This document shows, piece after piece, positions 12,532-57,123 of a stretch of DNA of 64,000 nt (positions are counted from its first letter, which is position 1; the number at the start of each line of letters is the position of its first letter). The translations under genes and the position numbers were made by a program. The stretch spans positions 14,960 to 78,959 of the forward strand of contig JBGAKH010000011.1 of the NCBI GenBank assembly GCA_044224515.1, written 5' to 3'. The DNA comes from Chlorobiota bacterium. Its GTDB lineage: Bacteria; Bacteroidota; Ignavibacteria; Kapaibacteriales; NICIL-2. The notes below the pieces were generated by a model. The model had not been told where the DNA came from and made no database searches. It saw only the letters and a program-made list of their open reading frames with translations.

Positions 12532-12647
12532 GTGTTCAATTCGGCGTACTCTTCTTCAACCGCGCTGCAGTGAAGCACAGAGCTGCACTCACTCCACAAG
12601 TGACACACCCTTTTGGACTCCATTGTACTCGAGTCAAGTCTTGTCGG

Positions 12648-14565: not shown

Positions 14566-14931
14566 GTGGCTAACTTACCCGTCTTTTCCAATGACGACAA
14601 TAATTGCCTTGATAGTTGTGTGAAAGATGCATATTTCCAGGCATTTATCACAAATTGTATGGTGACGGATTGGGCTGATAAGGGATATTGTCTGCCGGAA
14701 AAAGTTGAAGATTGCCCAAGCACTAAGACGCATGTTTCGGTAACGAAGGGATTGTGTTGGACAATAACAAACACCGTAAAACCCGGAGGACATTTTGTAC
14801 GATCACTACAATGTTGTCCTGACGCAAATTGCGAAACACTTTATACAATTTGTATAGATCGGACCGTATTCCCGGCCATTGTGCAGTACAATTTCGTGAA
14901 TAAAAATCCCGTGGGATCGCCTACTTGTTAA
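14566..14931 (+). CDS. Hypothetical Cys-rich small protein
   Basis: 121-aa ORF with 10+ Cys and no clear signal peptide. Coding status uncertain. Confidence 0.25.
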   Translation: MANLPVFSNDDNNCLDSCVKDAYFQAFITNCMVTDWADKGYCLPEKVEDCPSTKTHVSVTKGLCWTITNTVKPGGHFVRSLQCCPDANCETLYTICIDRTVFPAIVQYNFVNKNPVGSPTC

Positions 14932-15123
14932 ACGATGTTTCCAATACTTGGCTCCAATAGTTCTAATTGGACGACGCCTTGTTTCCAAATAGATTGTTAC
15001 TAGCGTTGTGGGTAGATCTGTTTAGTGCGGGTCTACCATTTATAGTAAGTACGACTGGAAGAATATTTCAAAATAAAGACGGACTTATTATCTTTCTTCT
15101 ATTCTAAATCACGGATAGCTTCT

Positions 15124-17442
15124 ATGATTCACAGACAGATATCGGCCATATTCTTATGCATCTTCCTGTCAATATCTGCTTCCGCGCATTGCTTCGGGAT
15201 GCAGGGAGCATTTTACTCAGTAGGTACTGACTACGTAAAGGCAGTGTCTGCGGATTCGTGTACATATCTATATGGCTCAAATGGTTTTATAATTGGAACA
15301 AAGGATTTCGGTGATACCTGGAAGAACTGTACGATTCCTGGAGCATATCTGAATATTAAAGGTGTCGCTTGGTCGCACGGAGTACTGTATTCCGTGGACG
15401 AACTCGATGGTGCTTTTCGGATGGACCCTAAGAGTGGGACTTGGAGCAAGTTAAGTGCGGTAAGTGCCATGCTTTCCGGAGACAGTGTGATATCAATGTT
15501 CAGTGATAATGTACATGGCAACGTAGTCATTGTGGCTCGGCACAAAATAGTTTACTATGGCTCGTCAATGATTCCGCAGATGGCACCTGTGCCAGCTATT
15601 ACATCGATCAAAGCAGCAGTTGCAATAGGCTCTTTGTTTTTAGTTAGTGATAGCTTGAAAACCTACAGATTGGATCCTTCCGCTCAATACAGTTTAGTAC
15701 AATGGACCAATCCTGAGTACCTTAAATGCAAGTCGTGCTTGCTGCCTCGAGCAGTGTTTGATTCAGGAGATAGCCTTCTTGTTAATTACGGATATGTATG
15801 GTACCGTGTTTCTGCTGACATGAGTAGTGGTAAGATTATAGACTACACTCGCGGTGTTATTGGAGAACGAAACGGCGTATATCGAGTGTTGGAAGGTGAG
15901 TATAGTTCGGCGGCCGATCACTCTGTATTCCAGTCACGTGCTGTGCGAGAAGCCAATGACTCGTTTCAATATGTGGATACTGTTGCTCAAGACGATGAGT
16001 ATTTCATCGGCGACACTCAACTCAATGATATACGATGGTTGTCGGATTCTGTCGTTATTGTTGCTGGCTCGAAGAGCACGATATTCATTAGTCGTGATGG
16101 TGGCTGGACCTGGCAGCTAAGGTCTTACAATCCGTACGGAGTGGTTCAGAAAATGCGTGACTCTTTATTTGGTATCTCAAATGAACGAATTCGAGTTACG
16201 AGAACATGTGACGGGAATGTCACGTGGTTACCTCAGAAAATGACGAGTGACTTGAGTGACTATAACTGGTATACAGGAGGCGATGTTTTGTATTTAGGGA
16301 CAGATGTGGTAGTTATGGTAGACAATACCGGAACTACTGCCACATCCCACAACTACCGATATTCTTTTGATAGCGGAGCTACAATTAGCTATGGAAATGT
16401 AAAAAATTGGAGAAGCATGTATGCACTGAACAGTATGAGCTTAGAAAAAGATAGCGGGCGCTGGTGTATTTATCGAAGTGGGGAGGGGTATAGTAGTCCC
16501 CCATTCGAGTATTGGTATACTGTTCGCGTGTCTTTCGATTCTTTGATGCAGCCCGTAGGCTATATCCTTTTCGACTCGTTGAAGTATCGGAATATTGTAA
16601 GAATTGACGGCGCTCTTGTGACAGTCGCGACATCGTTTAAAAAGGATACATATGATCAAATCCGGATCATGCGTTCCTCTGATAACGGCAGAACATGGCA
16701 GACTGTTTCGGATACGCTATCACACCAGTATAGCTATCCAAGTGCGATAGCAGCATCTTCAAATCACTTATTTGTGCCAACATTTACGTATGATACGGAC
16801 TCGGTGTCTGTAAGTCTCATATCTTGGTATGACACATCGAATTGGATGAAAAGCGGTACGTGTATCAAGCTAAAACCAGCGGCAGATCCGATAATTGTTG
16901 AATGGCAACGATCGCTATATTTTGGTGGAAGACGCCGTATGTTGGCACATAAGGTAGGTAGTACTGATCCAATGGAATGGGATACCGTGTCACCTTTAGG
17001 CCCTTTATTCTACGGATGTCTTTCGGTTCAGGGGTCTAGCATGATACTATATGTTGCTAAGTTAGATTCGAACAATCGCACCTACAGTCGACGGTACGGG
17101 GTAATGAGACTTGAAGAGCAGAGTGTTGGCGTTGATAACTTGCACATCGAAAACAAAACCAGTATGCTAGTTGGAGATCCGTATCCGACTCCCTGCAGGT
17201 CAATCTGTAGAGTCTATTATTCTCACGACGACCAAGAGGAAGTAACCAATACAAATATCTCCGTATACGATGTCAATGGTTATCTGGTGGATCCGTCGCT
17301 TTATAATCTTAGCGTTGCGAACCAAAGCATGTCAAAGGCAGAGTTGACTTTTGAGATATCAAACTTCACGAAGGGAGTCTATATTTTGAGAGTGCAGAGC
17401 AGAAGTGGTACGCAATGTACAAAACTGCTCAAGTGCGAGTAA
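15124..17442 (+). CDS. Secreted BNR-like repeat protein with T9SS CTD (paralog family A)
   Basis: Signal peptide; SRDGGWTWQ and SDNGRTWQ Asp-box motifs. C-terminus ISVYDVNGYLV...GVYILRV is a T9SS CTD. Clear paralog of 20607..22961 (shared blocks FGDTWKNCTIPG/QGSNWTRFTIPG, VSRDGGRTWHF). Confidence 0.65.
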   Translation: MIHRQISAIFLCIFLSISASAHCFGMQGAFYSVGTDYVKAVSADSCTYLYGSNGFIIGTKDFGDTWKNCTIPGAYLNIKGVAWSHGVLYSVDELDGAFRMDPKSGTWSKLSAVSAMLSGDSVISMFSDNVHGNVVIVARHKIVYYGSSMIPQMAPVPAITSIKAAVAIGSLFLVSDSLKTYRLDPSAQYSLVQWTNPEYLKCKSCLLPRAVFDSGDSLLVNYGYVWYRVSADMSSGKIIDYTRGVIGERNGVYRVLEGEYSSAADHSVFQSRAVREANDSFQYVDTVAQDDEYFIGDTQLNDIRWLSDSVVIVAGSKSTIFISRDGGWTWQLRSYNPYGVVQKMRDSLFGISNERIRVTRTCDGNVTWLPQKMTSDLSDYNWYTGGDVLYLGTDVVVMVDNTGTTATSHNYRYSFDSGATISYGNVKNWRSMYALNSMSLEKDSGRWCIYRSGEGYSSPPFEYWYTVRVSFDSLMQPVGYILFDSLKYRNIVRIDGALVTVATSFKKDTYDQIRIMRSSDNGRTWQTVSDTLSHQYSYPSAIAASSNHLFVPTFTYDTDSVSVSLISWYDTSNWMKSGTCIKLKPAADPIIVEWQRSLYFGGRRRMLAHKVGSTDPMEWDTVSPLGPLFYGCLSVQGSSMILYVAKLDSNNRTYSRRYGVMRLEEQSVGVDNLHIENKTSMLVGDPYPTPCRSICRVYYSHDDQEEVTNTNISVYDVNGYLVDPSLYNLSVANQSMSKAELTFEISNFTKGVYILRVQSRSGTQCTKLLKCE

Positions 17443-17457
17443 ATTGGAAGTATGGTT

Positions 17458-17670
17458 TCAGATGGTGTTTGAATTGGCTCTTGAAATCTCCTCAGCAATG
17501 TCTATCAAATCCTGCCCCTGAATAACGAGATAAGGAGACGCTGTAATCGTCATGGTCTGCGTCTCCTTTTTCGTAAGTTCCAGCCCCTTGTACATCTCGA
17601 GTCCTGTCGTATACCACATTATCCGGAAGTATTTCTGTGACTTTCGCGTGACACGCATGGTATTCGTCAC
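17458..17670 (-). pseudogene. 3' fragment of a phage virion-morphogenesis (Mu G-like) gene
   Basis: 70-aa ORF matches the C-terminal 70 aa of the 51979..52692 product (RKSQKYFRIMWY / RSRKYFWMMYY; ASPYLVIQGQDLIDIAEEISR) but lacks the N-terminal two-thirds. Confidence 0.6.
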
Positions 17671-18025
17671 TCCGAACCGTTAAGCAGTAGCATAGCTTGA
17701 AAAACCGCAGCTGATAAGCCGCTTCTCAATGAAAGTTAGGTCGTGGAATTCGTATTGCCTATGTTTACTGATCCGCGTTATAACATGCAGTAATTGATAC
17801 ACTTCGTGAAGTGCACTAGGGGTATGTAGCATCAAGGTGCTAGATTAATCGGCAGAGGAATGTGTGGGGCTTTAGGGTGGATTGTCCACTTTGTCCGCTG
17901 CAGTTAAGGGGTGTAACTAACACTGTTTATATTGTGTTGAACCAAAGATTATCGTGCGGAACGGCAACTCAACAGTAGACCAATTGTGCTGATCCTAGTG
18001 GTTGCGAGTTGGAGTGTAAGCCACA

Positions 18026-19570
18026 GTGTCCATGATAGAAGTTGCTAATAAGAGGAATAATGATATGCGTACTTACATTGTGCTGATTCTTACAATGGCT
18101 CTCTTTTGTACAAGAATTGATGCTAGATCCGAGTTGCATCATTGGGTCACGAAAACTATTAAAGTCCCTGACTTTAAAATCACCTCCAAGTATTCGGTCG
18201 TTACAATCCAGGACATGATGAAAGTAGGCACCCAGACGTATTTAGTCCTCGGCTCAGCCGAATCTAGCCTTGGTTTGCCGGGTTTCAACAAATTGTATAA
18301 AACCTCTGATACTGGAGTAACACTGCAGGCAGTTACTAGTCAAATGTTTAGTGATTCACTGGGTCAAAATCGCTTTTTTGTACATGAGGATGGCCGCGGT
18401 TGCATTGTCGGCTTTCAACAACGCTACCTGACAAGTGATATCGGGTCTACCTGGAGCAGAATACAGGATCAACAAATGGAGTATTACCGAGGTTCTGATT
18501 CGTATGCTAACGTGATAGTAACAAATTCCCAGCGAGCCAGCATTTCGATCAGTGAAGATTTCGGTCAGTCGTGGCGTAAAATACCAATGCCGGACTCTTC
18601 TACGAATAGAACCAACATGATCAACTATCTTGTACTGGCTGACAGTGCATCTATGTATTTGCTTCGTCAAGATGTTAACTACAACACAGGCAGTGGACAA
18701 CTTCGTTTATTTTCGAGTAGAAATTTAGGAAAGGATTGGATGACATTGCGATGTCCGATTGAAGGGTTCGAGAACGATACTGCCGGAAATTGTAATGTAC
18801 AGGCAATCAAGTTTGTTAATCGTGGAAGTATTGGCTTGGCGTGCATTTCGTATCGAGATTCACTGAATACATTGGTTTACTCGATTGTGCGATCAACAGA
18901 CACCGGAATGCATTGGACGAAGATAGAGACATCACCGTTCGACCAAATGATTAATATGCCGAACCGCTTCTATTCTTATAGCCGAGATACCATTTTCATG
19001 ATCTATAGAAGTGGATGCATTAAAGTATCAACAGATGCTGGTCTATCATGGAGTTGGTTTGTAAAAGAAGTCCCTTGGTTTAAAGATGTAGGCAATACAC
19101 CTAACTATGTATCTTCTATGGGACCGATACTATTTGAGAGCACTAAGACAGCGGTCGCAGCGTTCGCAGGAAGACAAGACGGAGTGTTCAATATTATGTA
19201 CCTGGCAGACGGAGAACATGCCACTAGTGTTGAAGACGATACACTACCGGTGAGGAGTTTGTTGCTGAATTCAACGGTATATGTTGGTGAGTGCTATCCG
19301 ATGCCAGCTACTCGGGATCTTCAAATAGTAACAAACTTCACTCGTGGTTATGATCTTCAAGCTGTTTCCGTTGAAGTCTATGATTTGCAGGGCCAGCGGG
19401 TAGCGACAATGAGAAGTCCGGATGTTGTCTTTACTCCTCATATATGGGGTTCAGGTTGGTATACGCTTGGCATACCATTGGCAAATTTAGAGGTCGGAAC
19501 GTATATCGTTAATGTTTGTGATGGAAGAGGCAGTTGCCGGAGTGTCACGGTGTGTCACACACCTTACTAG
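18026..19570 (+). CDS. Secreted BNR-like repeat protein with T9SS CTD (paralog family B)
   Basis: Signal peptide; SEDFGQSW, STDTGMHWTK and STDAGLSWSW motifs; C-terminal CTD (VEVYDLQGQRV, GTYIVNV). Paralog of 50416..51918. Confidence 0.65.
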   Translation: MSMIEVANKRNNDMRTYIVLILTMALFCTRIDARSELHHWVTKTIKVPDFKITSKYSVVTIQDMMKVGTQTYLVLGSAESSLGLPGFNKLYKTSDTGVTLQAVTSQMFSDSLGQNRFFVHEDGRGCIVGFQQRYLTSDIGSTWSRIQDQQMEYYRGSDSYANVIVTNSQRASISISEDFGQSWRKIPMPDSSTNRTNMINYLVLADSASMYLLRQDVNYNTGSGQLRLFSSRNLGKDWMTLRCPIEGFENDTAGNCNVQAIKFVNRGSIGLACISYRDSLNTLVYSIVRSTDTGMHWTKIETSPFDQMINMPNRFYSYSRDTIFMIYRSGCIKVSTDAGLSWSWFVKEVPWFKDVGNTPNYVSSMGPILFESTKTAVAAFAGRQDGVFNIMYLADGEHATSVEDDTLPVRSLLLNSTVYVGECYPMPATRDLQIVTNFTRGYDLQAVSVEVYDLQGQRVATMRSPDVVFTPHIWGSGWYTLGIPLANLEVGTYIVNVCDGRGSCRSVTVCHTPY

Positions 19571-19583
19571 CATAATCTTTTTG

Positions 19584-20417
19584 CTACCACAGCTGTGAGC
19601 GGCTCCGAGTTTTAGCAATCTCCTCCGCAATATCAATCAAATCCTGTCTTTGAATGACGATGAAAGGAGATGCCGGAATAGTTATTTCCAGCGTCTCCTT
19701 TTTCGTTAGTGCCAGACCTTTGTACAAGGCCGCTGCTTCACTCAGGCGCACGATTGATTTTGAATGTGTTGTCGTATCCTCGCCCTTCTTCTCAGCTCTC
19801 TTCCTTCTCTTCTCAGCTTTGCTCAAGGTGTCTGTGAGCTTCTTGCGCCGGGACTTATCACCGGTGCCAGTGAGCGCGTAGTACATCATCCAGAAGTACT
19901 TGCGTGAGCGTGGGGTAATGCGAACCGTATGAGTGGATCCGAACTGCTGCGCTCGAGCCTGAGCTTTGTTTGAGCTAATGCTTACTTGGTTCGTACCGGA
20001 AACGCTCACCTCAATACTGGCAGCAAGTCCTCCACCGGTTCGTGCGAGTGTTCGCTCGGTGCTTTTTCCCACTGCTGCTTAAGCAACGCGAGTGCTGGCA
20101 GCCAGTGGCTTCCACCTGTCGCTTCCACCCGAGAACGGCGTGATACCAGCATCGCTTGAGTTGTAGCGTCCGCGCTCTTTAAAGTTCTGCTCGAACGATG
20201 CTCGCAGCACCTCGGCAATTTGGCGCATAGCCTCTGGCGGTATCTGTGCAGTCTCAGTTCGGTAATGACATTCGCGACGGAAACGATGTGTCGACCGTCG
20301 TGGAAATGGGGGGGCACTGGGAGTGGATACTCCATAGATGGCAAGAATCGAGCTGTCGACAATGTGTTTATAGAACGATAGTGGAGGTCGTTGAAGTACG
20401 AATTGGTGTATCCTCAT
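19584..20417 (-). pseudogene. Phage virion-morphogenesis (Mu G-like) gene copy inactivated by an in-frame stop
   Basis: Two same-frame ORFs (19584..20072 and 20079..20417) together align at ~90% aa identity with the 237-aa product of 51979..52692. Where the intact copy has Tyr (RVA-Y-AAVGKS), this copy has TAA. The N-terminal ~35 codons are replaced by unrelated sequence. Confidence 0.7.
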
Positions 20418-20419
20418 CC

Positions 20420-20530
20420 GGCATCAACAGGACAAAAAATGTATGGCGGCTTAACCACATACGTTCGGTACTACAATGAGGGACGATTACACAGTAGTCT
20501 GAAGCACCAAACACCGGTTGCAGTTTATCA
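20420..20530 (+). mobile_element. Remnant 3' end of an IS3-family (rve/DDE integrase) transposase gene
   Basis: Translates to ...YGGLTTYVRYYNEGRLHSSLKHQTPVAVYHQKK*, the conserved C-terminal tail of IS3-family OrfB transposases. No upstream catalytic domain is present. Confidence 0.55.
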
Positions 20531-20606
20531 CCAGAAGAAGTAGTTTAGACGTTGCATCCGGGACAGAAAAAGATTTACGCAGAAATCCTAAGATTTTGTC
20601 CGAAGA

Positions 20607-22961
20607 ATGGGGGGGCTCAACCGAAGCAAAAGAACTTACATTGATATATTTATGAAAAGAAGTCGTTTCTGGCATATCCTTTTACTGATGTTCACAGTTC
20701 ATCTTACAACGATTGCCGATGCAGGAATTCCAGTTTTTACCAGTTTAGGTACAGACTACACCGGGTCAGTTGTAGTTGATAATACGATATTTATATACGG
20801 TGAGAATGGCGTTATGATGCGTTCAACCGATCAAGGGTCTAATTGGACAAGATTTACTATTCCGGGACCGTTTCGTAAGATCAAAGGTGTCGTGGCTATT
20901 GGGCATTCAATTTATGCCGCAGATCAGCTCGCCGAGATCTACACTACTGACATAGTAACTTGCAATTGGCAGCCTCTACATGCTGTGTCAGATATGCTTG
21001 AGAATGACTCTGTGGTTGGGATGTTCCGGGAGAAAAACGCCGGTAATATTGTGATAGTGTCTCACAATAGTGTCACATATTTTGATTCCACGTTTCAAGT
21101 GAAGAGAACACTACTGGATAGTTCTCTTAACATTCAGTATGCAAGTATAGTTGGAAACACTATTATGGTCGCTAACAACGTGAAAACTTACATACTTGAT
21201 CGTAACAACGGTTACAAACCTGTGGTTTGGAAGAAGCCCGCTTATTTACAGTGTTCAAACTGCCTCCTCCCAAGCAATGTATGCGATGCTGGAGATAGCT
21301 TATTGGTCAAATACGGAATAGTATGGTATATAGTATCTCCTGATATGCAACAAGGTCGAGTAGTGGAACACAGCGATGGACTTGTTGCGGAGTACCGTGA
21401 CAGATTCACTGTCTTAGAGAATAGTTATGATGCTCCAACTGACCATTCGACGCTTCGATCACGATGTTTCAGAGAAACCAGCGGCCAAACCATTCGCTTC
21501 GACACGTTGATTCAGGAAGATGAGTACTATGTTGGCAGGGTTTACTTAAGCCGCATGAGAACGGTTGGTGATTCGACAATAGTTGCATTTGGAAAGAATA
21601 ATACAATCGTTGTTAGTCGAGACGGTGGACGGACATGGCATTTTAAATCTTATAATGCATATGGTCCTGTGCTTAAAATGCGCGACTCACTGTATGGAAT
21701 CACCAACGATCGCATTAGAGTCATTACGACAAAGGATGGCAATTGTACGTGGCTGCCGCAAAAAATGACTTGTGATACTACCGACCATGGCTGGTTTTCC
21801 GGAGGAGACGTATTCTACCTGGACAGTGTAGCGCTGATGGTTTGTAATAATGCCAACGGATGGACTAAAACGAACTACCGATTCATTTCCGAAAAGGATG
21901 GCGATGTGGTATATGGTAACATACCAGAGTGGAGAAGTGTATATTCAGTAAATAGTATGAGCGTTCTCAAAATTGACGATAGGTGGTCAATTTATCGTAG
22001 TGGACAAGGAGTAAGCTCCATGACTCAGGATTACTGGTACACCACTTTATCTATTCTCGATTCGAATTATAAACCGTTAAGTGTTAAGCTTTATGATTCA
22101 CTTCGAATCAGGAATGTCATAGACTTAGGATTAAAGAAACTCACCATATTTACGTCATATAGGGTCGATGACTATAACACCTCGAATTTATATGAATCAA
22201 CAGACGGAGGAGAATCTTGGACAAAATATACTACGAAAATATCTGCTGGTAATAACTATGATGGTCAGATAGTTAGCAGTGGTGACTTTCTGTTTGTGCC
22301 TAGTAACTATAAAGATTCTATTGGGTCTCGACACAATAGAATGGAGTGGATTGAAGCAAATAAGTATGAGAGTCATGGGGTCTGTTTTGAAGACACGGTG
22401 ACCGATATTACCTCGGTTGTAAACTGGAAAGGCAAAATATATTACGGGCAATTTGGTAGCTTAGTATTGCACTACGCCAAAAGTAGTGACCCTTTAGATT
22501 GGCTCAAGATCGCCCCATTTGGATATCTGTCGTATCACTGTTTTGGAACCCAGGGAGATTGTATGCTTGTTTCTCTTGCAAAAATAAGCTCAGGTAGTAT
22601 TTCCTCGGCAAGACAGTACGGATTATTGACATATTCCGGCGAATTGAGTTCTGTCAGTGAGGCCCATGTAGAAAATGATGCTAGTTTGTATCTACATTCG
22701 ACATATCCAAATCCGTGCAAAACTGTATGCAAATCTCACTATTCACATGATGACCAAGACGAGATTGGTGCGGCAAATATTAGTCTATATGACATTAACG
22801 GATTCGTTATTGATACTCAGGGATACAGTGTTGACGTTGCAAACACAACACTGCTAGAATGCGATATCACTCTTGACCTTACAAAAATACCGAGTGGAAT
22901 ATATGTACTTAGGGTTCGAAGTGGTACTGGTGCTAAATCTGTAAAAATATTGAAACTATAG
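20607..22961 (+). CDS. Secreted BNR-like repeat protein with T9SS CTD (paralog family A)
   Basis: 784 aa, signal peptide, STDQGSNWTR / SRDGGRTWHF / STDGGESWTK motifs. C-terminal ISLYDINGFVID...GIYVLRV CTD. Paralog of 15124..17442. Confidence 0.65.
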   Translation: MGGLNRSKRTYIDIFMKRSRFWHILLLMFTVHLTTIADAGIPVFTSLGTDYTGSVVVDNTIFIYGENGVMMRSTDQGSNWTRFTIPGPFRKIKGVVAIGHSIYAADQLAEIYTTDIVTCNWQPLHAVSDMLENDSVVGMFREKNAGNIVIVSHNSVTYFDSTFQVKRTLLDSSLNIQYASIVGNTIMVANNVKTYILDRNNGYKPVVWKKPAYLQCSNCLLPSNVCDAGDSLLVKYGIVWYIVSPDMQQGRVVEHSDGLVAEYRDRFTVLENSYDAPTDHSTLRSRCFRETSGQTIRFDTLIQEDEYYVGRVYLSRMRTVGDSTIVAFGKNNTIVVSRDGGRTWHFKSYNAYGPVLKMRDSLYGITNDRIRVITTKDGNCTWLPQKMTCDTTDHGWFSGGDVFYLDSVALMVCNNANGWTKTNYRFISEKDGDVVYGNIPEWRSVYSVNSMSVLKIDDRWSIYRSGQGVSSMTQDYWYTTLSILDSNYKPLSVKLYDSLRIRNVIDLGLKKLTIFTSYRVDDYNTSNLYESTDGGESWTKYTTKISAGNNYDGQIVSSGDFLFVPSNYKDSIGSRHNRMEWIEANKYESHGVCFEDTVTDITSVVNWKGKIYYGQFGSLVLHYAKSSDPLDWLKIAPFGYLSYHCFGTQGDCMLVSLAKISSGSISSARQYGLLTYSGELSSVSEAHVENDASLYLHSTYPNPCKTVCKSHYSHDDQDEIGAANISLYDINGFVIDTQGYSVDVANTTLLECDITLDLTKIPSGIYVLRVRSGTGAKSVKILKL

Positions 22962-23188: not shown

Positions 23189-24493
23189 GTGAAAAATGTC
23201 ATGATATGTAGTGTATTGGCTTTGTCATTGTGGTTGTTTAGTGCAGTTGAAGCAGAAGCTCAACTCAGCTCGGCGTTTTTTGCCGTTCGACCTGAGCAGA
23301 TGCGTTATTTAAGGTACGACCGCATTGTAAACGAATTTGATTCGGCGGTTGTTTCGATAACAGTCGGTGAGTTTAAAGTAAGTAGTGAAACTAACACCTT
23401 ATTGTTACCACTGTTTGTAGTCCCGACTGACTCTGTGGTCAACGGAATTGGTAGTGTGGTTCGGGATAATTCGATTGCTGCGAGAATGAGAACCGAACCC
23501 TTTGCAATTCCCACTAGTACCTTCAACGTAACATTCTTTCGCGAACTATTAGGTACCAACAATTTATGTGCTTTGCCCGGCAATAGCGGTTCTACTGGAA
23601 TTGATAAACACTGGACACTCGGGTCCAACAAAGTAGCTGAGCGCACCGAGTTCATTATTGAAATGGTTCGTCAAAGCGACGGTGCCGTTATCTGCACGGT
23701 GGACTCGGTTGGAGTTTTACCAAATCCTACAACTAGTATTATTCAGCGCTATGGTACATTTCCGGACCACATGAATCATTCTCGTACATTGAGTGGAGTA
23801 TCTTACTCAGATAGCGCTTACTTCAGGATAGTTCCCGCACGAGACACTTTAACACCATTTGGCTTTCGTGCTAGTCAAATGTCTATGTATGTAAATCTGT
23901 CTGCTATTAGAGAGTACTCAGATTCTGCATTAACTAAACTAAATTCGGTCGATTCGGATTCGTTACAGCACCTTTATTATTTAGACTTAAAACAATATTA
24001 TGATAGTACGATAGCTGCAACAGGAAGTTTGCCTTATCGAGCTCCAAATGTTTTACCTGTTGGCTATGAAAGTCAATTTTTAAACTCATATTATGTGAAC
24101 GCAACTCCCTGGAAGACCGACACTATTTTGTGGAAGAATAATCCTGGAGCATACTCAAAAATAGGTTTTACTCCAGGTCGTGACTCGTCGATTCGACTCG
24201 CTGATTTGAAGGATGCTCTATGCACTGTAGAGATGTGGACAGTTAATAGTGGCAGCAGTAATAAAATAGATTTGATAATAAAAACGAGGTTTTACTTTAC
24301 AAATAGCAAAGTTGTCTTGTTTGATATGATGGGGAGAACAGTTGCACAATCTCAAATCCCATTTATTTATACTAAGAACAACAAAATTCAAGTAGATGTG
24401 GATCAAGAACTGGCATCTGGCAGCTATGTTGTGGTACTTTTCAGTAGTGACAATCAATTATTGAGTTGGACAAAAATTGTGTATGAGAAGTAG
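23189..24493 (+). CDS. Secreted hypothetical protein with T9SS CTD
   Basis: Signal peptide (LWLFSAVEAEAQ). C-terminal VVLFDMMGRTVAQ...GSYVVVLF CTD pattern. Confidence 0.5.
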   Translation: MKNVMICSVLALSLWLFSAVEAEAQLSSAFFAVRPEQMRYLRYDRIVNEFDSAVVSITVGEFKVSSETNTLLLPLFVVPTDSVVNGIGSVVRDNSIAARMRTEPFAIPTSTFNVTFFRELLGTNNLCALPGNSGSTGIDKHWTLGSNKVAERTEFIIEMVRQSDGAVICTVDSVGVLPNPTTSIIQRYGTFPDHMNHSRTLSGVSYSDSAYFRIVPARDTLTPFGFRASQMSMYVNLSAIREYSDSALTKLNSVDSDSLQHLYYLDLKQYYDSTIAATGSLPYRAPNVLPVGYESQFLNSYYVNATPWKTDTILWKNNPGAYSKIGFTPGRDSSIRLADLKDALCTVEMWTVNSGSSNKIDLIIKTRFYFTNSKVVLFDMMGRTVAQSQIPFIYTKNNKIQVDVDQELASGSYVVVLFSSDNQLLSWTKIVYEK

Positions 24494-25043
24494 CCGCACG
24501 ACATCGATTTACGTTCTTCTGTGTAAGAAGAAATGAGTGCATTTATATCTAAATGGTTGTTGCATCAACAACGTCTTGCTGCCAAGAATCGGTAAAAAAG
24601 TCCACGGTTGTATGTATTTCTAGTAGTGAGTAAACATTAACTGGCTCTCATTCTGAGTTGGATATTTTGCGTTGGAGGACGGCTTTCAACGCTACAGCTT
24701 TCAACGACGGGTTGTCATACTAACATCTTACAGTCTAGTTGGACAATCCGACCACTTCACCCCAGCAAATCCATATCGAGTTGATCAAGCATCTTCCCGT
24801 CAGACCTTCCAACTCCTAGCTCTCGAAGTTACACTTGTGCTGAAACATACATTGCGGATCAGTAAAGACATCAGAGACGGAAACGATGAGTCGACTGTTG
24901 TGGAAATGGTGGGTCATTAGGTGTGGATTCTCCAGACCTGCCGACAAACTCAAACTAGAGTGAATAGTAGCTTCCGAGAAGATGTTCCAAATGTGCTTGG
25001 CTTTACAAGGCGGGGTGCAACGCAATTGCGGAAAGAAAAAATA

Positions 25044-25295: not shown

Positions 25296-26495
25296 GTGCC
25301 CAAGGTAAATTTCTACATCGAGTCCTACAAAAACCAGCTCGGAGAGTCGCAGCTTCGAGCTCAGATGACCTATGGCAACAAGCGCCTTCGCGTGCCTACA
25401 CTTTTGAGTGTCAAACCAGAGGACTGGGATCCAGTCAAACAGCAGGTTCGAAAGTCTGCGAAGGGGAGCGCCAAACAAAATCACATCCTATCAACCATCA
25501 AGGCACGATTGCTCGACATCTTTCAAGACTTCCAGCTCGCGGGACAGTTCTCGCCCACGGTGGAGCAGATCACAGGTGAGTTCAATAGAAGTACGAACCA
25601 GAAGACCGAGACTATAGAGACGCTCTTTGATGCGTTCATAGCAGAGAAGAGCCCGCTCGTGACAGCAAACCTCATCAAGCACTACGTTATAGCCTTCAAT
25701 CACCTAAAGGCATTCTCAAAGGCAGCACGTGCGCCACTGGTGCTGCAGAACATGGATGAAGGATACTACACTCGCCTGCGCGGGTACCTGGTGGAGCAGG
25801 GCATGCTCAACAACACGATCGGCAATCAGATCAAGTATCTCAAAGCGTTCCTTGCATGGTGCGACCGGCAGGGCTACGCAGTGCACCCTGGTTATAAGCT
25901 ATGGAAGAAGCTTAAAGAGAAGGTGAGTATTGTGACGCTGACCGAAGACGAGCTTGTAGCGATCGAGGCGCTTGATCTTTCGGCCACTCCAGGACTGGCG
26001 CGCACCCGGACACTGTTCTTGCTTGAATGCTACTCCGGTCTCAGATGGTCAGACGCCTCCCGAATAACGAAAGCTTCGCTCCACTCGGACTACTTGCTAG
26101 TGAACGTTCGTAAAACACAAGAGCCCTTGCGTATTCCGCTCACAAGACAGCTCAAGTTGGTAGTGGAGACACTGCTATCCGGCGAGATGCCAAAGGTCTC
26201 AGCACAGAAGTTCAACGATCAGATTAAAGAGGTCTGCCGGCGTGCTGGGATTGACGCCGAGGTGCAGCACGTCAGACATAGTGGGGCTGAGAGACGAGAG
26301 GCGCATTTCGCTAAGTGGCAGCTTGTTACATCGCACACCGGACGTCGGACGTTTGTAACCTTATCACTGCAGAAAGGAATGCGGCCGGAGGTCCTGATGC
26401 AGATCACCGGCCACAAAGACATTGGGACTATGATGCGCTACGTCAATATCTTGGGGGAGACCACTGCGAAGGAGATGAGGAAGGCATGGAGCTAA
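25296..26495 (+). CDS. Tyrosine-type site-specific recombinase (phage integrase)
   Basis: C-terminal catalytic region with HTGRRTF (Arg), GHKDIGTMMRY (His...Tyr). N-terminal arm/SAM-like domain typical of Bacteroidota integrases. GTG start. Confidence 0.8.
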   Translation: MPKVNFYIESYKNQLGESQLRAQMTYGNKRLRVPTLLSVKPEDWDPVKQQVRKSAKGSAKQNHILSTIKARLLDIFQDFQLAGQFSPTVEQITGEFNRSTNQKTETIETLFDAFIAEKSPLVTANLIKHYVIAFNHLKAFSKAARAPLVLQNMDEGYYTRLRGYLVEQGMLNNTIGNQIKYLKAFLAWCDRQGYAVHPGYKLWKKLKEKVSIVTLTEDELVAIEALDLSATPGLARTRTLFLLECYSGLRWSDASRITKASLHSDYLLVNVRKTQEPLRIPLTRQLKLVVETLLSGEMPKVSAQKFNDQIKEVCRRAGIDAEVQHVRHSGAERREAHFAKWQLVTSHTGRRTFVTLSLQKGMRPEVLMQITGHKDIGTMMRYVNILGETTAKEMRKAWS

Positions 26496-49064: not shown

Positions 49065-49352
49065 ATGAACCAGCTACTTGACCTATTAGAACCAGACGAC
49101 CTTCTGCACACGGACCTGGAGACGGTTGTTAACGCCTGCGGGGTGGAGGTTGCAAAGGACCTACTCGAGCATTGTGCCGGCGGTGCGATCTACGTTCCAA
49201 AGCCTGTGAGTATTGACCTCTTGGTGGAGCGCTTCATTCAGGCAAGGATGAATGTTGGGGTGGTCAGTGTGAAGGTGCTTGCCCGGCAGCTTGGATGCTC
49301 TGAGCGGCACGTGCGCCTCTTGCAAACCAGAATACGAGACAGAAGACGGTAG
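49065..49352 (+). CDS. Mor/C-family late transcription activator
   Basis: 95 aa with GGAIYVPKP (the G..IYIP signature of Mu Mor family) and C-terminal HTH LARQLGCSERHVRLL. Confidence 0.5.
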   Translation: MNQLLDLLEPDDLLHTDLETVVNACGVEVAKDLLEHCAGGAIYVPKPVSIDLLVERFIQARMNVGVVSVKVLARQLGCSERHVRLLQTRIRDRRR

Positions 49353-50415: not shown

Positions 50416-51918
50416 ATGCTAGATTTGAGAAAACACCTCTACTTTGTTGCCGTTCTGCTTCACATTTCATTGGTTTGCTGGTCGCAAGACACATTCAGAT
50501 GGAGTGCTAAAGCAGTGTACTGCGATGGTCGTAGTAAAATTGGGTTTCAAGATTTCGTCTCAACTAATTGCATCTTTGACATTGAATCCGGGAAACTTCT
50601 TTGGGTTGCGACGGCTTCAAGTGACATTTCTACGCCTTACAAGCTGAAGTACCAGCTTAATAGCTTCAATGACTCATCTTGTGCAGTTAAGAACAATATT
50701 CTGATTGAGCTTGATTCGTTTACGAATGCGATTGGCATACAGCTTAATAGAACGTCATGCATGATCTTGTCCCAAAGAGAGTGCATTTCAACAAACGATG
50801 GATTTCGCTCATGGAGTACGTCAACAAACGATTCCTTGTACGGGTTTTACTGGGGATATGATGTGCGAGATTCAACAATACTCGTTAGCCTTAACTATTC
50901 GAATGCATACCTCTGTAGCACTAATTCAGGAAAAGAATGGCACAGATTGACAACACCTAGGATGGGGTCAACAGCCCACGTTGTGCTGAATCGATTCCGC
51001 ATCGTTGAACCGAACGTATACTTTTGCGTTTCTTCCCATTCAGACCGTGAAGCTGGAACAAAGTTGTATAAGTCTCAGGATGGAGGTGGTTCGTGGACAG
51101 AGATGGTTGATTGCTTTCCAACGTCGAACAATGATTCAACAGATCTCTATAACGTAAATGCCATTACTTTCACTTCGGCTGGGATTGGCATAATGGAAGT
51201 AAGCCACACTGTAAATGGCATATCTTTCCATGAGATACTTCGGTCAACGGATAAGGGCAAGACTTGGCTGTTGATTCGATCCAGTGAGTATAACGTCGGT
51301 GATGTACGTTCTCCAGGCATACATTTGAAGTGCGTTAGTGCCGATACGCTGTTGCTGTTTTGCATTAAGGGGCAGGTAATGATAAGCAAGGATGCAGGTC
51401 TGAGTTGGTCATGGTTGGTTCGAGAAGATCTAAGTAAGTATGATGACGGCAGGCCATTACCAATACAGGTAGTTAGCAACCCATTGGTAATTTCAAGTAC
51501 AGAGGTGTACGCGTCATTCGATTGGAGACAAGATGATAGTTTGAATATTATGAAACTTGTTCCGGAAACAGTTAACGAAGTCGAGGATAAAATTGACACC
51601 GAGACGAACAGAATTGAGTACAATGACATGTGGTTTGGAGAAGCCATACCTAGCCCAGCCTACGAGGAGTTGCGTTTAGGAGTGTCGCTACTAAAATCTG
51701 TTCCATTTGAGTCAACCAGATACGCACTCTACGATTTCTATGGGACTAGGATTCAAAGTGGCACTCTTGGTCAGTTGGAAGTTCGCGGCCATAGGTACGG
51801 TATGTCATGGAGTACGTATGTGCTCAATCTGAGTCAGTATCCGGAAGGCATTTATTTCGTGCAAGTTGGCGATCAAACGTATACCGATTGCAAGGCAATA
51901 ATGCATCTCAGACGTTGA
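50416..51918 (+). CDS. Secreted BNR-like repeat protein with T9SS CTD (paralog family B)
   Basis: STDKGKTWLL, SQDGGGSWTEM, SKDAGLSWSW. C-terminal CTD (RYALYDFYGTRI..GIYFVQV). Paralog of 18026..19570. Confidence 0.65.
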   Translation: MLDLRKHLYFVAVLLHISLVCWSQDTFRWSAKAVYCDGRSKIGFQDFVSTNCIFDIESGKLLWVATASSDISTPYKLKYQLNSFNDSSCAVKNNILIELDSFTNAIGIQLNRTSCMILSQRECISTNDGFRSWSTSTNDSLYGFYWGYDVRDSTILVSLNYSNAYLCSTNSGKEWHRLTTPRMGSTAHVVLNRFRIVEPNVYFCVSSHSDREAGTKLYKSQDGGGSWTEMVDCFPTSNNDSTDLYNVNAITFTSAGIGIMEVSHTVNGISFHEILRSTDKGKTWLLIRSSEYNVGDVRSPGIHLKCVSADTLLLFCIKGQVMISKDAGLSWSWLVREDLSKYDDGRPLPIQVVSNPLVISSTEVYASFDWRQDDSLNIMKLVPETVNEVEDKIDTETNRIEYNDMWFGEAIPSPAYEELRLGVSLLKSVPFESTRYALYDFYGTRIQSGTLGQLEVRGHRYGMSWSTYVLNLSQYPEGIYFVQVGDQTYTDCKAIMHLRR

Positions 51919-51978: not shown

Positions 51979-52692
51979 TTAGCGTTTTCGAGTGCGAGAT
52001 ATCTCCTCAGCAATTTCAATCAAATCCTGCCTTTGAATAACGATATAAGGAGATGCCGGAATAATTATTTCCAGCGTCTCCTTTTTCGTTAGTGCCAGAC
52101 CTTTGTACAAGGCAGCAGCTTCACTCAGGCGCACGATAGCTTTTGAGTGTGTGGCTGTATCCTCACCCTTCTTCTCGTCACGCTTCCTTCTCTTCTCAGC
52201 TTTGCTCAAAGTGTCTTTGAGCTTCTTGCGCCGGGACTTATCACCTGTGCCCGTGAGCGCATAGTACATCATCCAGAAGTACTTGCGTGAGCGTGGGGTA
52301 ATGCGAACCGTATGAGTGGATCCGAACTGCTGCGCTCTGGCCTGTGCTTTATTCGAGCTGATGCTCACCTGGTTCGTACCGGAAACGCTCACCTCAATAC
52401 TGGCAGCAAGTCCTCCACCGGTTCGTGCGAGTGTTCGCTCGGTGCTTTTTCCCACTGCTGCGTATGCAACGCGAGTGCTTGCAGCCAGTGGCTTCCATCT
52501 GTCGCTTCCTCCAGAGAACGGCGTGATCCCGGCATCGCTTGAGTTGTAGCGTCCGCGCTCTTTGAAGTTCTGTTCAAACGATGCTCGCAGCACCTCGGCA
52601 ATTTGGCGCATTGCCTCAGGGGGGATCCGTGCTGTCTCGGCAGCAAGCCGTGAGACAAGCTCGTTTATTGTTTGTGGGTCCGCAGCAATCAT
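51979..52692 (-). CDS. Phage virion morphogenesis protein (Mu G/P2 S-like) with Lys/Arg-rich insertion
   Basis: AQQFGSTHTVRITPRSRKYF resembles the YAxIHQFGG block of the tail_comp_S family. Lies downstream of F-like in Mu order. Contains a KR-rich insert (SRRKKLKDTLSKAEKRRKRDEKKGED) that is absent from the 17458 fragment. Confidence 0.55.
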   Translation of the reverse strand: MIAADPQTINELVSRLAAETARIPPEAMRQIAEVLRASFEQNFKERGRYNSSDAGITPFSGGSDRWKPLAASTRVAYAAVGKSTERTLARTGGGLAASIEVSVSGTNQVSISSNKAQARAQQFGSTHTVRITPRSRKYFWMMYYALTGTGDKSRRKKLKDTLSKAEKRRKRDEKKGEDTATHSKAIVRLSEAAALYKGLALTKKETLEIIIPASPYIVIQRQDLIEIAEEISRTRKR

Positions 52693-53549
52693 TACTTAAC
52701 CTTTAGAGTGCTTTGAAGGATCTTGGCGATGTCTGAATCGTACTTGCTAAGGTCTGGAGTCCAGGGGACACCAGGAGGTGAGTTGAAGCCCGGCGCTGGT
52801 GGATACTGCGCGTATATCTCCGGACCTGACTTGGAGAGGCCGAAGCGGTTCATCTCGCGCTCGCCAAGGCTGCGTGTGCGTGTTCTGCACATGTAGTGAA
52901 GGGGAGGATTGCGCACTTCTGATCCAAGCAAGTCAACAACTACTCCGTCGAGACCTGCACACGTTGACGTCGTGCGCTCATCGACCACGGCAATGTACTG
53001 CATGTACGGACGCCTATCTGCTGCCTGCTTCATCTGATCGTAGCGCGAGTTCATGTAAGCGGACTGCATGTTGGTGTCGTAGATGTTGCGCAGACGTGAT
53101 CCTGCCGACAGATCCACTGTACTTGTCTTGCCGGTAGCTGGGTCGACAACGTCATTTGGTCCGTACCATCCTCTGCTTTTGAGCTGCTCAGTTACAGTTT
53201 CCTTCCAGGCTTCAAAGGTCTGCCCTTCCTCTTGCGCGGTGTCTATCGAGTCGCGTAGCATCTGCAGCACGTCTGCACTTACGACCTTAGCCGATGTGAA
53301 TGCTTGGTCGTGTGCTGTTTTCTCCAGGTCGTTCCAGTTCCACGTCGCAACGATGTCCTTTGCTTTGAACATGTCGATTGTCTTCTGTGGTGGCTGGCTG
53401 AATACCTTGCCAAAGAAGTCCGCTTGATCTTGCGTAGCGGGGTCGCCGCCAAATGATAGTCCATCATCACTTGGAGTTCGTCCATTTGCGGCTAAGTAGC
53501 GAGCGCTGAGCTCAGCGTACCTGAGTGCGTTAGTTACTTGCATTGGCAT
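52692..53549 (-). CDS. Phage head morphogenesis protein (Mu F/SPP1 gp7-like)
   Basis: LRNIYDTNMQSAYMNSRYDQM...VVDERTTSTCAGLDG resembles the Phage_Mu_F domain. Start probably at MPMQ; the supplied ORF extends to 53627. Confidence 0.55.
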   Translation of the reverse strand: MPMQVTNALRYAELSARYLAANGRTPSDDGLSFGGDPATQDQADFFGKVFSQPPQKTIDMFKAKDIVATWNWNDLEKTAHDQAFTSAKVVSADVLQMLRDSIDTAQEEGQTFEAWKETVTEQLKSRGWYGPNDVVDPATGKTSTVDLSAGSRLRNIYDTNMQSAYMNSRYDQMKQAADRRPYMQYIAVVDERTTSTCAGLDGVVVDLLGSEVRNPPLHYMCRTRTRSLGEREMNRFGLSKSGPEIYAQYPPAPGFNSPPGVPWTPDLSKYDSDIAKILQSTLKVK

Positions 53550-55182
53550 CCTCCATCTGCGCAGATGCATGACCAATGACCTTCGAGCCGAATATTGCGT
53601 TGAAGAGTATCGCACGGAGGTTATCATCCGGCAACTCGCTCATAAGAGAGGTAAGTCTGCGGTTAGCTTCACCGAAACTCTTCGAGTCATGTATCACTTT
53701 GATCATGGGTGCCAGCATCTCGGCGACTGCCGACTGCGACTCTTTTGACAGCTTAGCGATGGCGGTGTCGATTGCCATTTGATCGGCTGTTGTGAGTTTG
53801 TCTGCGAAGCTCTCAATAGGCTCAGCCGGGGTCTCAACGGCTGGTGTCGTCTCTGCAGCTTGCGTTGCCGATGCCGGTGCTGCTGAACTTACAAGCTCAA
53901 TGTGCTCAGGCTTAAAGCCGTACACGTCTTGGTAGTACTCGCTTGTGAAAGCAAGCCGAGGGTTCTTAAGCAAGTATGAGTCACGAAGTGCGCGGTCGGT
54001 GTCGATCGACTCCTGAGCATAGAACTTAGCCGTAGGGTAGTGGCTCGGAGACCAGAAGTTTGCGTCGATCACCCAACGAAACAAGGTGTTAAGCGTTTGG
54101 CAGACGAGCCCCTGATCGGCGAGTGCAATGTCCTTGCTAACCTCCAGCGCTGTTGTATCGCTTCCAAGCTTTCCGGGTGTGCCTGCAACAGCTCCTTCGT
54201 GCCCAAGCTCAAGCTCGATGATATCGGCGCGCATGTCCTCACGCAGACCTCGCCAAAGTTCGGCTGATGCTTTGCCACTTGCATCAATGATGTTGATGTC
54301 CTGATCATCCGGCGTGACGACAACACCATCTTGCTGCAACTGCTCGAGATAGTCAAAGAGTTCGTCGAAGTCTTCCGTGTCGGAGCCTCTACGAACCTTG
54401 CCATGCAGGTAAGGCATGCCGTATTTCTGCAGGAACTTCATGTACAGCTTCTGCCCACCCTTCATAAAGTGCACGCTCCAGAAGCAACTAGCAAGTATAG
54501 GCTCTCCATAAGGGCGCTCGAACTGATCGGCCTCGTGCTTAGTTACCAGGAACTTACGTGCCGGCACTACCTCACCATTGATCGGCTGCTCGCGTGTCTT
54601 GAACCGTAGCTGCTCTTGCGCATCAAATCCGAACCAGTCGTTTGGCTTTGCCTTCACTTCAGTAGGCAGCATCATGCCACCGCGCTCGTTCCAGTAGACC
54701 TCTTGAATCCGGTAACCGAACTGCGGTGCATCGAGGATATCATTGATGATGCGGTTCAAGTTGAGCTTTGCGATCACCTGCTCTTTAATGAACTTGGCCT
54801 CAGGGGTCTCACCAAAGTCGCGGTCAACGTCGAGCGTGTCTTTTAGAACACCGTACTTGCGCCGGGCGATGCTGGTTTTCACGATAGGGAATTGCCTAAG
54901 CTCTGAGTAGGTCATCTGATCCAGTCCACGTCGCTTGAGCATCTCATCCGGGTTGGGCAAGATCTTGATGAACTTGGTTGAGTAGCGCATGTCATAAGCA
55001 GCGTCGGCTGTTGCCCAGACGTCTGGTGGCGCCATCTGCCGATCGAAGGTCGAGCGGCGTCCTGAGCGTTCAGCTTTGTCGGCGACCTTTTGATTTTGTG
55101 GCACAGTCGCAGCTGGTAGCAATGGCGCTGCCTCTTGAATTCGTTGTGCGGCAAACTGCCAGAGTCTATCTGTGATTCCCAT
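53530..55182 (-). CDS. Portal protein (Mu gp29/DUF935-like)
   Basis: 550 aa, lying between terminase large subunit and F-like, as in Mu-like head modules. Confidence 0.5.
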   Translation of the reverse strand: MGITDRLWQFAAQRIQEAAPLLPAATVPQNQKVADKAERSGRRSTFDRQMAPPDVWATADAAYDMRYSTKFIKILPNPDEMLKRRGLDQMTYSELRQFPIVKTSIARRKYGVLKDTLDVDRDFGETPEAKFIKEQVIAKLNLNRIINDILDAPQFGYRIQEVYWNERGGMMLPTEVKAKPNDWFGFDAQEQLRFKTREQPINGEVVPARKFLVTKHEADQFERPYGEPILASCFWSVHFMKGGQKLYMKFLQKYGMPYLHGKVRRGSDTEDFDELFDYLEQLQQDGVVVTPDDQDINIIDASGKASAELWRGLREDMRADIIELELGHEGAVAGTPGKLGSDTTALEVSKDIALADQGLVCQTLNTLFRWVIDANFWSPSHYPTAKFYAQESIDTDRALRDSYLLKNPRLAFTSEYYQDVYGFKPEHIELVSSAAPASATQAAETTPAVETPAEPIESFADKLTTADQMAIDTAIAKLSKESQSAVAEMLAPMIKVIHDSKSFGEANRRLTSLMSELPDDNLRAILFNAIFGSKVIGHASAQMEDANASN

Positions 55183-55202
55183 GGTATAACCTCAAGTGTT
55201 AG

Positions 55203-56516: not shown

Positions 56517-57123
56517 TATACTTTACTTCGGTAATGTTAACGTTTGCTTCAAGTCGGACGTCGTTTTGTTTAATCTCATCTGCCTCGCCCTTTGCAGTGC
56601 GCTCGAGTTTGGCGATGTTCGGATAGGCGTGTGCAACCTTGACGATGATGTTGAAAAGGTCCTCCATCGTCATGTTTTCAAAAGCAGCCACGCCGCCTTG
56701 CTTGATCTTATTCGAGAGGATGCCAGCCGGCAGCATGAGCATAGACTGAAGGTTGGCAGAGTTGCGAGCATGACGCTCGTTCATCTCTTTGATCACATCG
56801 AGCTGAGTCTCACGCGCAATTCGGTCGCACTCATCATCCCAAGCGGACGCACGCTTTACCCAGTTGTAGCGCTGAGACTTGACGTGCAGATTCTTGTAGT
56901 TGAGATTCATCTTCACGCTCACTGCCTTGATCGAGCGCGACTCACAATTCATGTCACGGTAGACAGTGAACAGATAGAAGTCCCAATCATTCTCATCGTG
57001 CGCACGTTCGTAGAGCGGCCGCTCTTCCTGCTCGAGGTCGTCCTCGTCATCGGGGCGCGCCGGTATCTCGACCACGTACACCTGTTTGTTGTCTTTGTAG
57101 GCTGGGATAAAGGATCCGTTCAT
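56455..57123 (-). CDS. Putative terminase small subunit
   Basis: 222 aa, located upstream of and overlapping TerL. Acidic segment DDEDDLEQEE; the assignment rests on position only. Confidence 0.3.
   Translation of the reverse strand: MNGSFIPAYKDNKQVYVVEIPARPDDEDDLEQEERPLYERAHDENDWDFYLFTVYRDMNCESRSIKAVSVKMNLNYKNLHVKSQRYNWVKRASAWDDECDRIARETQLDVIKEMNERHARNSANLQSMLMLPAGILSNKIKQGGVAAFENMTMEDLFNIIVKVAHAYPNIAKLERTAKGEADEIKQNDVRLEANVNITEVKYNVVRTETVETVDDPPANDNP

Follow-up and report, generated by a model that had tools for sequence, protein, structure and literature searches.

Bacteroidota and their relatives decorate their surface and secrete enzymes chiefly by means of a type IX secretion system (T9SS). 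In the established course for cargo of the TIGR04183 type, a protein is exported by Sec, its C-terminal domain (CTD) is recognized, and the CTD is cleaved by a PorU-type sortase. The loading of phage-encoded proteins onto this system is almost unexplored, and the locus described here is a concrete case in a temperate phage. It lies in a 64,000-nucleotide (nt) stretch of contig JBGAKH010000011.1 (assembly GCA_044224515.1, Chlorobiota bacterium), referred to below as the window, and comprises five genes for proteins with predicted T9SS export: one inside a resident prophage and four in an island directly to its left. Prophage morons, or lysogenic-conversion genes, are a concept of Hendrix and colleagues, with bor and lom of lambda as examples. 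The favored reading, held with modest confidence and put at somewhat better than even, is that the five genes are moron-type cargo in a hypervariable slot of one temperate-phage lineage, kept among prophages that were eroded by insertion sequences (ISs).

The closest described system is Cryophage, a Bacteroidetes phage with a 76-kb genome that was recovered from metagenomes of cryoconite (PMC7468147; Bellas et al. 2020, Nat Commun 11:4403). Its otherwise conserved genome contains three hypervariable genes with T9SS CTDs (an endoglucanase, a GH39 and a PA14 protein), for which its authors proposed strain competition or superinfection exclusion (PMC7468147). Full-text literature searches for phage-encoded T9SS cargo or Por_Secre_tail returned no case besides Cryophage, which agrees with an earlier remark, made in an initial annotation of the window, that such substrates are rarely described. 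Prophages of Porphyromonas gingivalis offer a second point of comparison. They encode proteins with Sec signal peptides that obey the Bacteroidetes “Q-rule”, and the survey that described them reported no T9SS CTD or BNR domain, neither “T9SS” nor “CTD” appearing anywhere in its text (PMC10367356; Matrishin et al. 2023).

The five genes are named A1, B1, A2, C and B2 for open reading frames (ORFs) starting at 15124, 18026, 20607, 23189 and 50416, respectively. All five, as called in the initial annotation, exist as intact ORFs on the + strand (772, 514, 784, 434 and 500 amino acids [aa]):

15124..17442, +: A1, 772 aa, with a signal peptide-like N-terminus, 3 Asp-boxes and a T9SS type-A CTD at residues 687-769
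18026..19570, +: B1, 514 aa from a GTG, likelier 501 aa from ATG 18065, with 5 Asp-boxes and a CTD-like C-terminus
20607..22961, +: A2, 784 aa, likelier 769 aa from ATG 20652, with 3 Asp-boxes and a T9SS type-A CTD
23189..24493, +: C, 434 aa, with an N-terminal domain lacking a recognizable family or Asp-box and a CTD-like C-terminus
50416..51918, +: B2, 500 aa, within the resident prophage, with 4 Asp-boxes and a CTD-like C-terminus

Like Cryophage, this locus places phage-encoded T9SS type-A sorting domains in a hypervariable region. Unlike the Cryophage enzymes and PA14 protein (compared by description), its cargo consists of predicted BNR/Asp-box propellers plus one domain of no recognized family. 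Further differences are that this phage is temperate and integrated, has a Mu-like head and infects a host labelled Chlorobiota, and that additional cargo alleles survive in the chromosome next to decayed copies of the phage. B2 resembles morons as an extra gene at a module boundary that is missing in a related phage (L002), deviates in base composition and has a predicted envelope or secreted product, whereas its predicted export is by T9SS rather than by the Sec/lipoprotein route only, as with lambda bor and lom. As in the P. gingivalis prophages, phage proteins with predicted export are found in a T9SS-bearing phylum, and the “Q-rule” residue, Gln at the predicted +1 position, occurs in C, B2 and a Cys-rich 226-aa protein encoded next to B2; in contrast to the P. 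gingivalis proteins, the present cargo carry T9SS CTDs or CTD-like ends and, in four of five cases, Asp-boxes. Judged from sequence, the locus is a second, independent example of phage T9SS cargo, of another protein class and in a temperate phage. Beyond the precedent, it offers a delimited slot and a group of alleles that have been retained in the chromosome.

The initial annotation had ascribed signal peptides, Asp-boxes and T9SS CTDs to all five genes. By inspection only, a signal peptide-like N-terminus is recognizable in each of the five proteins: the n-region is basic, the core hydrophobic, and the residues at -3/-1 are small. For B1 and A2, the alternative ATG starts at 18065 and 20652, taken from other gene calls, yield a cleaner signal peptide; the B1 start is that of the 501-aa gene call on a Logan contig. 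The public NCBI protein record of B2 is a 467-aa version with an internal GTG start and the signal peptide cut off, so annotation pipelines would overlook its predicted export.

The CTDs were scored against Pfam PF18962 (Por_Secre_tail, curated cut-off 27 bits), TIGR04183 (cut-off 23 bits) and a hidden Markov model (HMM) trained on the C-termini of 26 relatives from outside the window plus two host-flank proteins, for which the best of 1000 shuffled decoys reached 8.2 bits. The scores, in that order, were:

A1 CTD: 39.6, 28.2 and 39.1 bits
A2 CTD: 31.3, 30.6 and 43.0 bits
B1 CTD: 21.6, 20.6 and 19.6 bits
B2 CTD: 16.9, 12.5 and 19.4 bits
C CTD: 17.3, 15.8 and 24.6 bits

All five matches to TIGR04183/Por_Secre_tail fall at the extreme C-terminus (the last ~80 residues), and two of them, A1 and A2, pass both curated cut-offs. 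The other three lie below cut-off but are correctly placed and reach 19-25 bits with the purpose-built HMM. With that model, scores above 8 bits among window ORFs of at least 100 aa were confined to the five cargo proteins and the two host-flank proteins used in training. CTD-like ends are therefore present in all five cargo proteins, in A1 and A2 by curated criteria and in B1, B2 and C in a weaker but non-random form.

Asp-boxes, scanned with the pattern [ST]x[DN]xGxx[WFY], bear out the initial annotation for four genes, with 3 copies in A1, 3 in A2, 5 in B1 and 4 in B2 against a shuffle expectation of 0.08-0.16. The exception is C (23189), which has zero Asp-boxes, no BNR match, no Pfam domain beyond the weak CTD, and no relative in the PDB. 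Among the BNR/Asp-box models considered (PF02012, PF13088, PF15902, PF14870), B1 scores 45 bits with Sortilin-Vps10 (cut-off 33) and A2 scores 32.4 bits with PSII_BNR and 27.8 bits with BNR (cut-off 27 each), while the best BNR-type score of A1 (19.8) and that of B2 (30.3 against a cut-off of 33) remain below threshold. Structure prediction, which had been proposed as a check, gave all-beta AlphaFold2 models of B2 and A1 from two-sequence alignments, at a confidence too low to show a propeller (predicted local distance difference test [pLDDT] 45.9 and 36.9). Profile searches of the PDB returned local blade matches only, to Ycf48, GH74 and sialidases.

Two enzyme families were considered, of which GH33 sialidase was rejected. 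The FRIP motif ([FYWLIV]R[IVL]P) and Arg triad of GH33 sialidases are missing in all five cargo proteins, and the PDB sialidase matches are local Asp-box hits (E 6.6e-5 or worse). GH74 xyloglucanases (~740 aa, two seven-bladed propellers) are alike in size to family A (A1 and A2); the match to 2cn2/2cn3 covers only ~50 residues (E 9.1e-6), no stretch is significant alone, and the catalytic Asp pair cannot be aligned. No catalytic family attained its threshold for any cargo protein in profile searches. For Asp-box propellers in general, the expected activity would be glycan binding or modification.

The cargo fall into two paralog families, as had been noted at the outset. A1 and A2 share 38% identity over 742 aa, and B1 and B2 share 23% over 496 aa (E 3e-29). 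The earlier suggestion of diversification is borne out. Families A and B, C, and the BNR proteins of the host flank show no significant mutual similarity beyond single blades and the CTD. In an exhaustive profile search, family A fell into a diffuse group of proteins, 750-790 aa long, that combine a signal peptide with propellers and a CTD. The profile had 640 representatives at E<1e-3 and only three at E<1e-30, namely A1, A2 and P0006. The last is the sole close relative from outside the window (E 3.6e-99, 28% identity), all others having E>1e-21. TIGR04183 was matched by 17 of 28 aligned members of this wider family. Family A resembles the chromosomal FCB-group BNR/Ycf48-like double-propeller proteins of ~750-790 aa in length, signal peptide, CTD and the conserved motifs CxxC...P and DG(N/G)xTWLPQ.

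The link to phage that the initial annotation had proposed is supported by B2, which lies between Mor-like and G-like genes of the resident prophage. The prophage comprises the following features, with GC content at third codon positions (GC3) given where relevant:

25296..26495, +: tyrosine integrase (Pfam Phage_integrase, Arm-DNA-bind_5, Phage_int_SAM_5; GC3 0.652)
26512-35951, -: low-GC accessory block between integrase and cI repressor
35955-36647: cI-type S24 repressor, facing a helix-turn-helix (HTH) gene
After the repressor, +: replication module with exonuclease, SbcC-like protein, polymerase exonuclease subunit, primase-polymerase, helicase and nuclease
49065..49352, +: Mor-like transcription activator (Pfam Mor E 1.1e-4, below cut-off), with a homolog at the same place in L002
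49731..50411, +: Cys-rich secreted protein, 226 aa with 16 Cys (GC3 0.374; no Pfam or PHROG match)
51979..52692, -: intact G-like virion morphogenesis/tail completion gene (phrog_26, E 9.9e-12)
52692..58568, -: head/packaging operon with F-like minor head protein, portal, large and small terminase, and a ParB-methyltransferase fusion
Next, up to the end of the window, +: protease/scaffold, major head protein and connector proteins

The integrase is probably the left end of the prophage. Since its GC3 (0.65) is like that of the phage core, the end was set directly before it. The Mor-like gene is the last conserved gene of the early operon ahead of the cargo slot. On the strand of B2, the gene for the Cys-rich 226-aa protein stops 4 nt ahead of B2; it is probably cargo that is transcribed together with B2. 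B2 and G are convergent, tail-to-tail, with a 60-nt gap.

The same geometry recurs in the island, at ~13.9-25.2 kb (11 kb), where intact A1, B1, A2 and C are interleaved with two decayed G-like pieces and two IS fragments directly left of the integrase:

14566..14931, +: Cys-rich ORF upstream of A1, 121 aa from a GTG start, no signal peptide as called (GC3 0.377; no Pfam or PHROG match)
17479..17691, -: G-like remnant 1, a 3'-terminal fragment, 37 nt past the A1 stop
19584..20261, -: G-like pseudogene G' (remnant 2), 14 nt past the B1 stop (phrog_26, E 5.5e-7)
20259..20543, +: DDE transposase fragment (C-terminus; rve_3 E 1.6e-7, rve_2 E 4.5e-7), joining the G' truncation to the A2 upstream region
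24855..24959, +: second IS-related copy after C, 78-82% identical to 20255-20359, ~340 nt left of the integrase

Remnant 1 is 82% identical to 51998-52109 and 79% identical to 19617-19726 by blastn, and is detected by tblastx as well. G' is nearly full-length and shares 92% nucleotide identity with the live G; it has one in-frame stop (Tyr76), and its first ~18 codons are replaced by IS-derived sequence. The segments at 20255-20359 and 24855-24959 were considered as G or F remnants and rejected, being IS-derived instead. No phage gene remnant besides the G pieces was detected by tblastx against the prophage in the interval 12-25.3 kb.

Each cargo gene had been described in the initial annotation as lying downstream of a G-like gene, in the same slot in live prophage and remnants. 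The orientation needs correction, since G is on the opposite strand and the two genes are convergent, with the 3' end of the cargo facing that of G at a distance of 14-60 nt. The shared slot stands for A1, B1 and B2, the only cargo that adjoin G or a G remnant, but not for A2, which is followed by C, or for C, which is followed by an IS-related fragment. Because A1, B1 and B2 occur in the same geometry relative to G or its remains, they would have shared one slot in related phages. Moreover, the contrast between 92% identity for G' and 23% for B1/B2 shows that slot content was replaced between closely related phages and did not diverge in place. A two-sided swap of cassettes with the live phage by homologous recombination was considered and rejected, as only the G side is shared and nothing upstream of the cargo is. 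The three alleles of one slot (A1, B1, B2) are very different from each other. The locus also amounts to a natural retention experiment, with the cargo kept whole amid the decay of all adjoining phage genes.

The slot comparison is with one phage, L002 (an ENA contig), the only related phage found (portal 62% and F-like protein 53% identical). Its gene order is helicase, nuclease, small membrane protein, Mor, slot protein, convergent G, F, portal and terminase. The slot there holds a gene for a 191/221-aa non-secreted protein and no BNR/CTD gene. With conserved flanks and different content, B2 and its Cys-rich partner are, by this comparison, accessory. The G homolog of L002 has a weak Phage_tail_S match. 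Its slot gene (5316-5981, -) encodes a cytoplasmic-looking product with a faint phrog_28055 match and overlaps the 3' end of G.

Composition sets the cargo apart as well, with GC3 of 0.36-0.45 compared with 0.54-0.66 for the phage core including the integrase, 0.52-0.56 for host genes and 0.55 for G'. The host is nearest to “Chlorobiota bacterium” metagenome-assembled genomes (MAGs) from membrane bioreactors (MgtE 72-77% identical), and its MgtE relatives are all MAGs of the Fibrobacterota-Chlorobiota-Bacteroidota (FCB) group. In the closest relative genome, L003 (MgtE 77% identical), synteny extends through the gene at 12648-13871 and nothing is shared beyond 13.9 kb; both island and prophage are missing from it.

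As for mechanism, the phages of this lineage would have a Mu-like head module and an uncultured FCB-group wastewater bacterium, labelled Chlorobiota in NCBI MAGs, as host. Their variable slot lies between the Mor-like gene, which closes the early/replication operon, and convergent G, which borders the slot with its 3' end. In what would be the simplest history, the island represents older, related prophages integrated in tandem at one site, in which IS-associated deletions, each reaching from one copy's G to a point shortly upstream of the next copy's cargo, would have removed prophage content except cargo. That four long cargo ORFs, signal peptides and CTDs included, are intact while all neighboring phage genes have decayed suggests selection for the cargo, and hence a benefit to the host. 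Retention in remnants without Mor and the early operon favors independent expression. The products would be exported through Sec by their signal peptide, recognized by the host T9SS through the CTD and passed over the outer membrane, followed by CTD cleavage by a PorU-type sortase and release or surface anchoring. Four of the five would display a BNR/Asp-box beta-propeller, most likely glycan-binding or glycan-modifying, that would alter the surface of the lysogen or its extracellular substrate range.

Surface conversion, glycan binding and superinfection exclusion are, as functions of the cargo, speculation. Should the proteins turn out to shield the surface or to be glycan-active enzymes, the prophages carried by wastewater bacteria of the FCB group would be tied to their surface phenotype and their resistance to phages. 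A more specific version, regarded as rather improbable, treats the slot as an arms-race locus in which every phage variant has its lysogen coated, via T9SS, with a different propeller protein that masks or destroys the receptor of competing phages, and the cargo of dead prophages are kept by the host as a growing stock of shields in its chromosome. It would imply a T9SS-delivered, phage-derived repertoire of surface defenses, with allele replacement at gene-boundary resolution beside G.

Several observations weigh against the reading of the five genes as retained, T9SS-exported phage cargo. The CTDs of B1, B2 and C (three of five) score under both curated cut-offs, signal peptides were assessed by eye alone, the AlphaFold models are unusable (pLDDT 46 for B2, 37 for A1), and genes for the T9SS machinery (PorK/L/M/N, Sov/SprA, PorV, PorU) are absent from the 64-kb window. 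Indirect support for such machinery in the host comes from the conserved host-flank proteins with CTDs and from the FCB-group relatives. The right end of the prophage and its attachment (att) sites are beyond the window, the prophage running past 64000, and no convincing att-like direct repeats mark the borders of the remnants; as landmarks of an att site, neither tRNA genes nor Rfam matches were found. Scans for sigma-70-type and TAnnTTTG (Bacteroidetes -7) promoters and for terminators gave no excess over shuffles, the promoters of the host phylum being outside the models of the promoter tool. Both Logan contigs discussed below stop in a 49-nt exact repeat common to G and G'. Finally, no homolog of family A or B was found in phage collections (IMG/VR, INPHARED, JGI metagenomes).

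Absence of homologs from phage genomes is half of what the initial annotation had named as speaking against its proposal, and apart from a weak match of B2 to PHROG 8700 (E 7.7e-6), the sole phage-side signal of note, nothing was indeed found there. Searches of deposited phages with A1 and B2 (tblastn) and with both regions (megablast) gave no match, nor did IMG/VR with G, the portal, the portal pair or the family A and B profiles, GTDB genomes with G, or JGI metagenomes with family A and the portal pair. Word-based searches with A1 and the B profile returned the query proteins alone. Because the families are nearly absent from every database, however, the lack of phage homologs says little.

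Turning to alternatives, it is unlikely, though worth serious consideration, that the cargo are helpers of the lytic cycle, made in induction or infection and secreted by T9SS as receptor-destroying or matrix-degrading enzymes that free progeny or prevent re-adsorption to debris. The position of B2 on the strand of the early/replication operon, directly past that operon and the Mor-like gene, is compatible with such a role, as is the lack of a detected independent promoter, and BNR propellers include sialidases and other glycosidases. Four cargo genes intact in remnants without Mor, early operon or virion genes nevertheless fit a host-side benefit better, and both the missing GH33 FRIP motif and Arg triad and the lack of a catalytic family at threshold argue against an enzyme of this kind.

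Doubtful to a similar degree is the proposal that the island is part of one composite element, or results from recombination or misassembly via the two G copies (e.g., a 32.4-kb unit inserted within G). G and G' are exactly 32,383 bp apart, with exact shared runs of up to 92 nt, the remnants are not bounded by att-like repeats, and the right end of the prophage is unseen. Assembly support was sought in two Logan contigs (run SRR28480385), identical to the window over 7178-19711 and from 21114 on, the second ending near 52094 as judged from its length. They reproduce A1-B1-G' and A2-C-integrase through B2-G, with identical A1 and C genes. The adjacencies of cargo and G, and the stretch from C and the integrase to B2, are thus independently supported. 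Because both contigs break within the shared 49-nt run, the assignment of the two G copies to B1 and B2 is taken from the NCBI contig alone. The order in that contig fits the L002 synteny and places the intact G with the intact phage. Against a composite or misassembled origin are the conservation in L002 of the order Mor, slot, intact G, F and portal, the truncation and stop codon of G', and the location of the IS fragments at the joints. The third, more diverged G fragment past A1 (79-82% identical) implies at least two decay events.

That the cargo are ordinary chromosomal T9SS substrate genes, beside which a phage integrated and once captured B2, is distinctly improbable. The conserved host-flank genes at 575-3472 and 4899-8315 do encode proteins with BNR domains and CTDs, shared with MAGs L003-L005, and on this evidence the host lineage is rich in BNR/T9SS architecture. 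Family A, moreover, belongs to a diffuse family (the 640 representatives above), and the lack of homologs in phage collections points the same way. However, A1 and B1 are each followed by a G fragment 14-40 nt past the stop in the orientation of the live phage, the island is missing from the closest relative, and the GC3 of the cargo is 0.1-0.2 away from that of host genes. Derivation of the cargo from the flanking host BNR genes was likewise rejected, as no similarity is detectable. A role of the propeller proteins as virion parts (receptor-binding or tail-associated), to which their position beside a morphogenesis gene and a very weak match of A2 to a minor-tail PHROG (E 0.004) might point, is scarcely credible in view of their predicted N-terminal signal peptides and T9SS CTDs, a strand opposite to the head operon, absence from L002 and foreign base composition.

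Other features of the window touch on these elements to varying degrees. The 121-aa Cys-rich ORF at 14566-14931 shows no significant similarity to the 226-aa Cys-rich protein; it is possibly the remnant of a secreted partner like that at 49731-50411, and the two Cys-rich proteins may be partners of the propeller cargo. Of the two large T9SS-type proteins in the host flank, that of 575-3472 is a BNR protein with six Asp-boxes, and that of 4899-8315 is an S8 peptidase that also has BNR and Ig-like domains. Just before the island, the final host gene in synteny (12648-13871, -) codes for a secreted protein of 407 aa that is 67% identical in L003 and whose CTD signal is marginal (18.2 bits with Pfam and 3.9 with the purpose-built HMM). 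Between two host genes is a 47-nt near-perfect palindrome at 12490-12536.

Within the prophage, the accessory block at 26512-35951 carries candidate anti-phage genes, namely a PDC-M30 A/B pair (DUF5131 and a GMT-wHTH protein), a PDC-S32/AbiJ-like gene, a fusion of DNA methylase and Mrr-type nuclease, and several ORFs of no assigned function. The Mu-type portal is ~35% identical to those of BcepMu and phiE255. The Mu-like morphogenesis genes at 51979-61656 are arranged in two divergent operons, with G, F, portal and terminases on the - strand and protease/scaffold and major head protein on the + strand, whereas in Mu itself the same genes form one co-directional block. At the head of the packaging operon, a ParB-like domain is fused to a DNA methyltransferase (57120-58568, -; phrog_498, E 8.8e-87). 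Lastly, a 29-nt inverted repeat pair, 14194-14222 and 14544-14572, with its arms 321 nt apart, is located at the left edge of the island and could represent a small mobile element or a mark of the island border.

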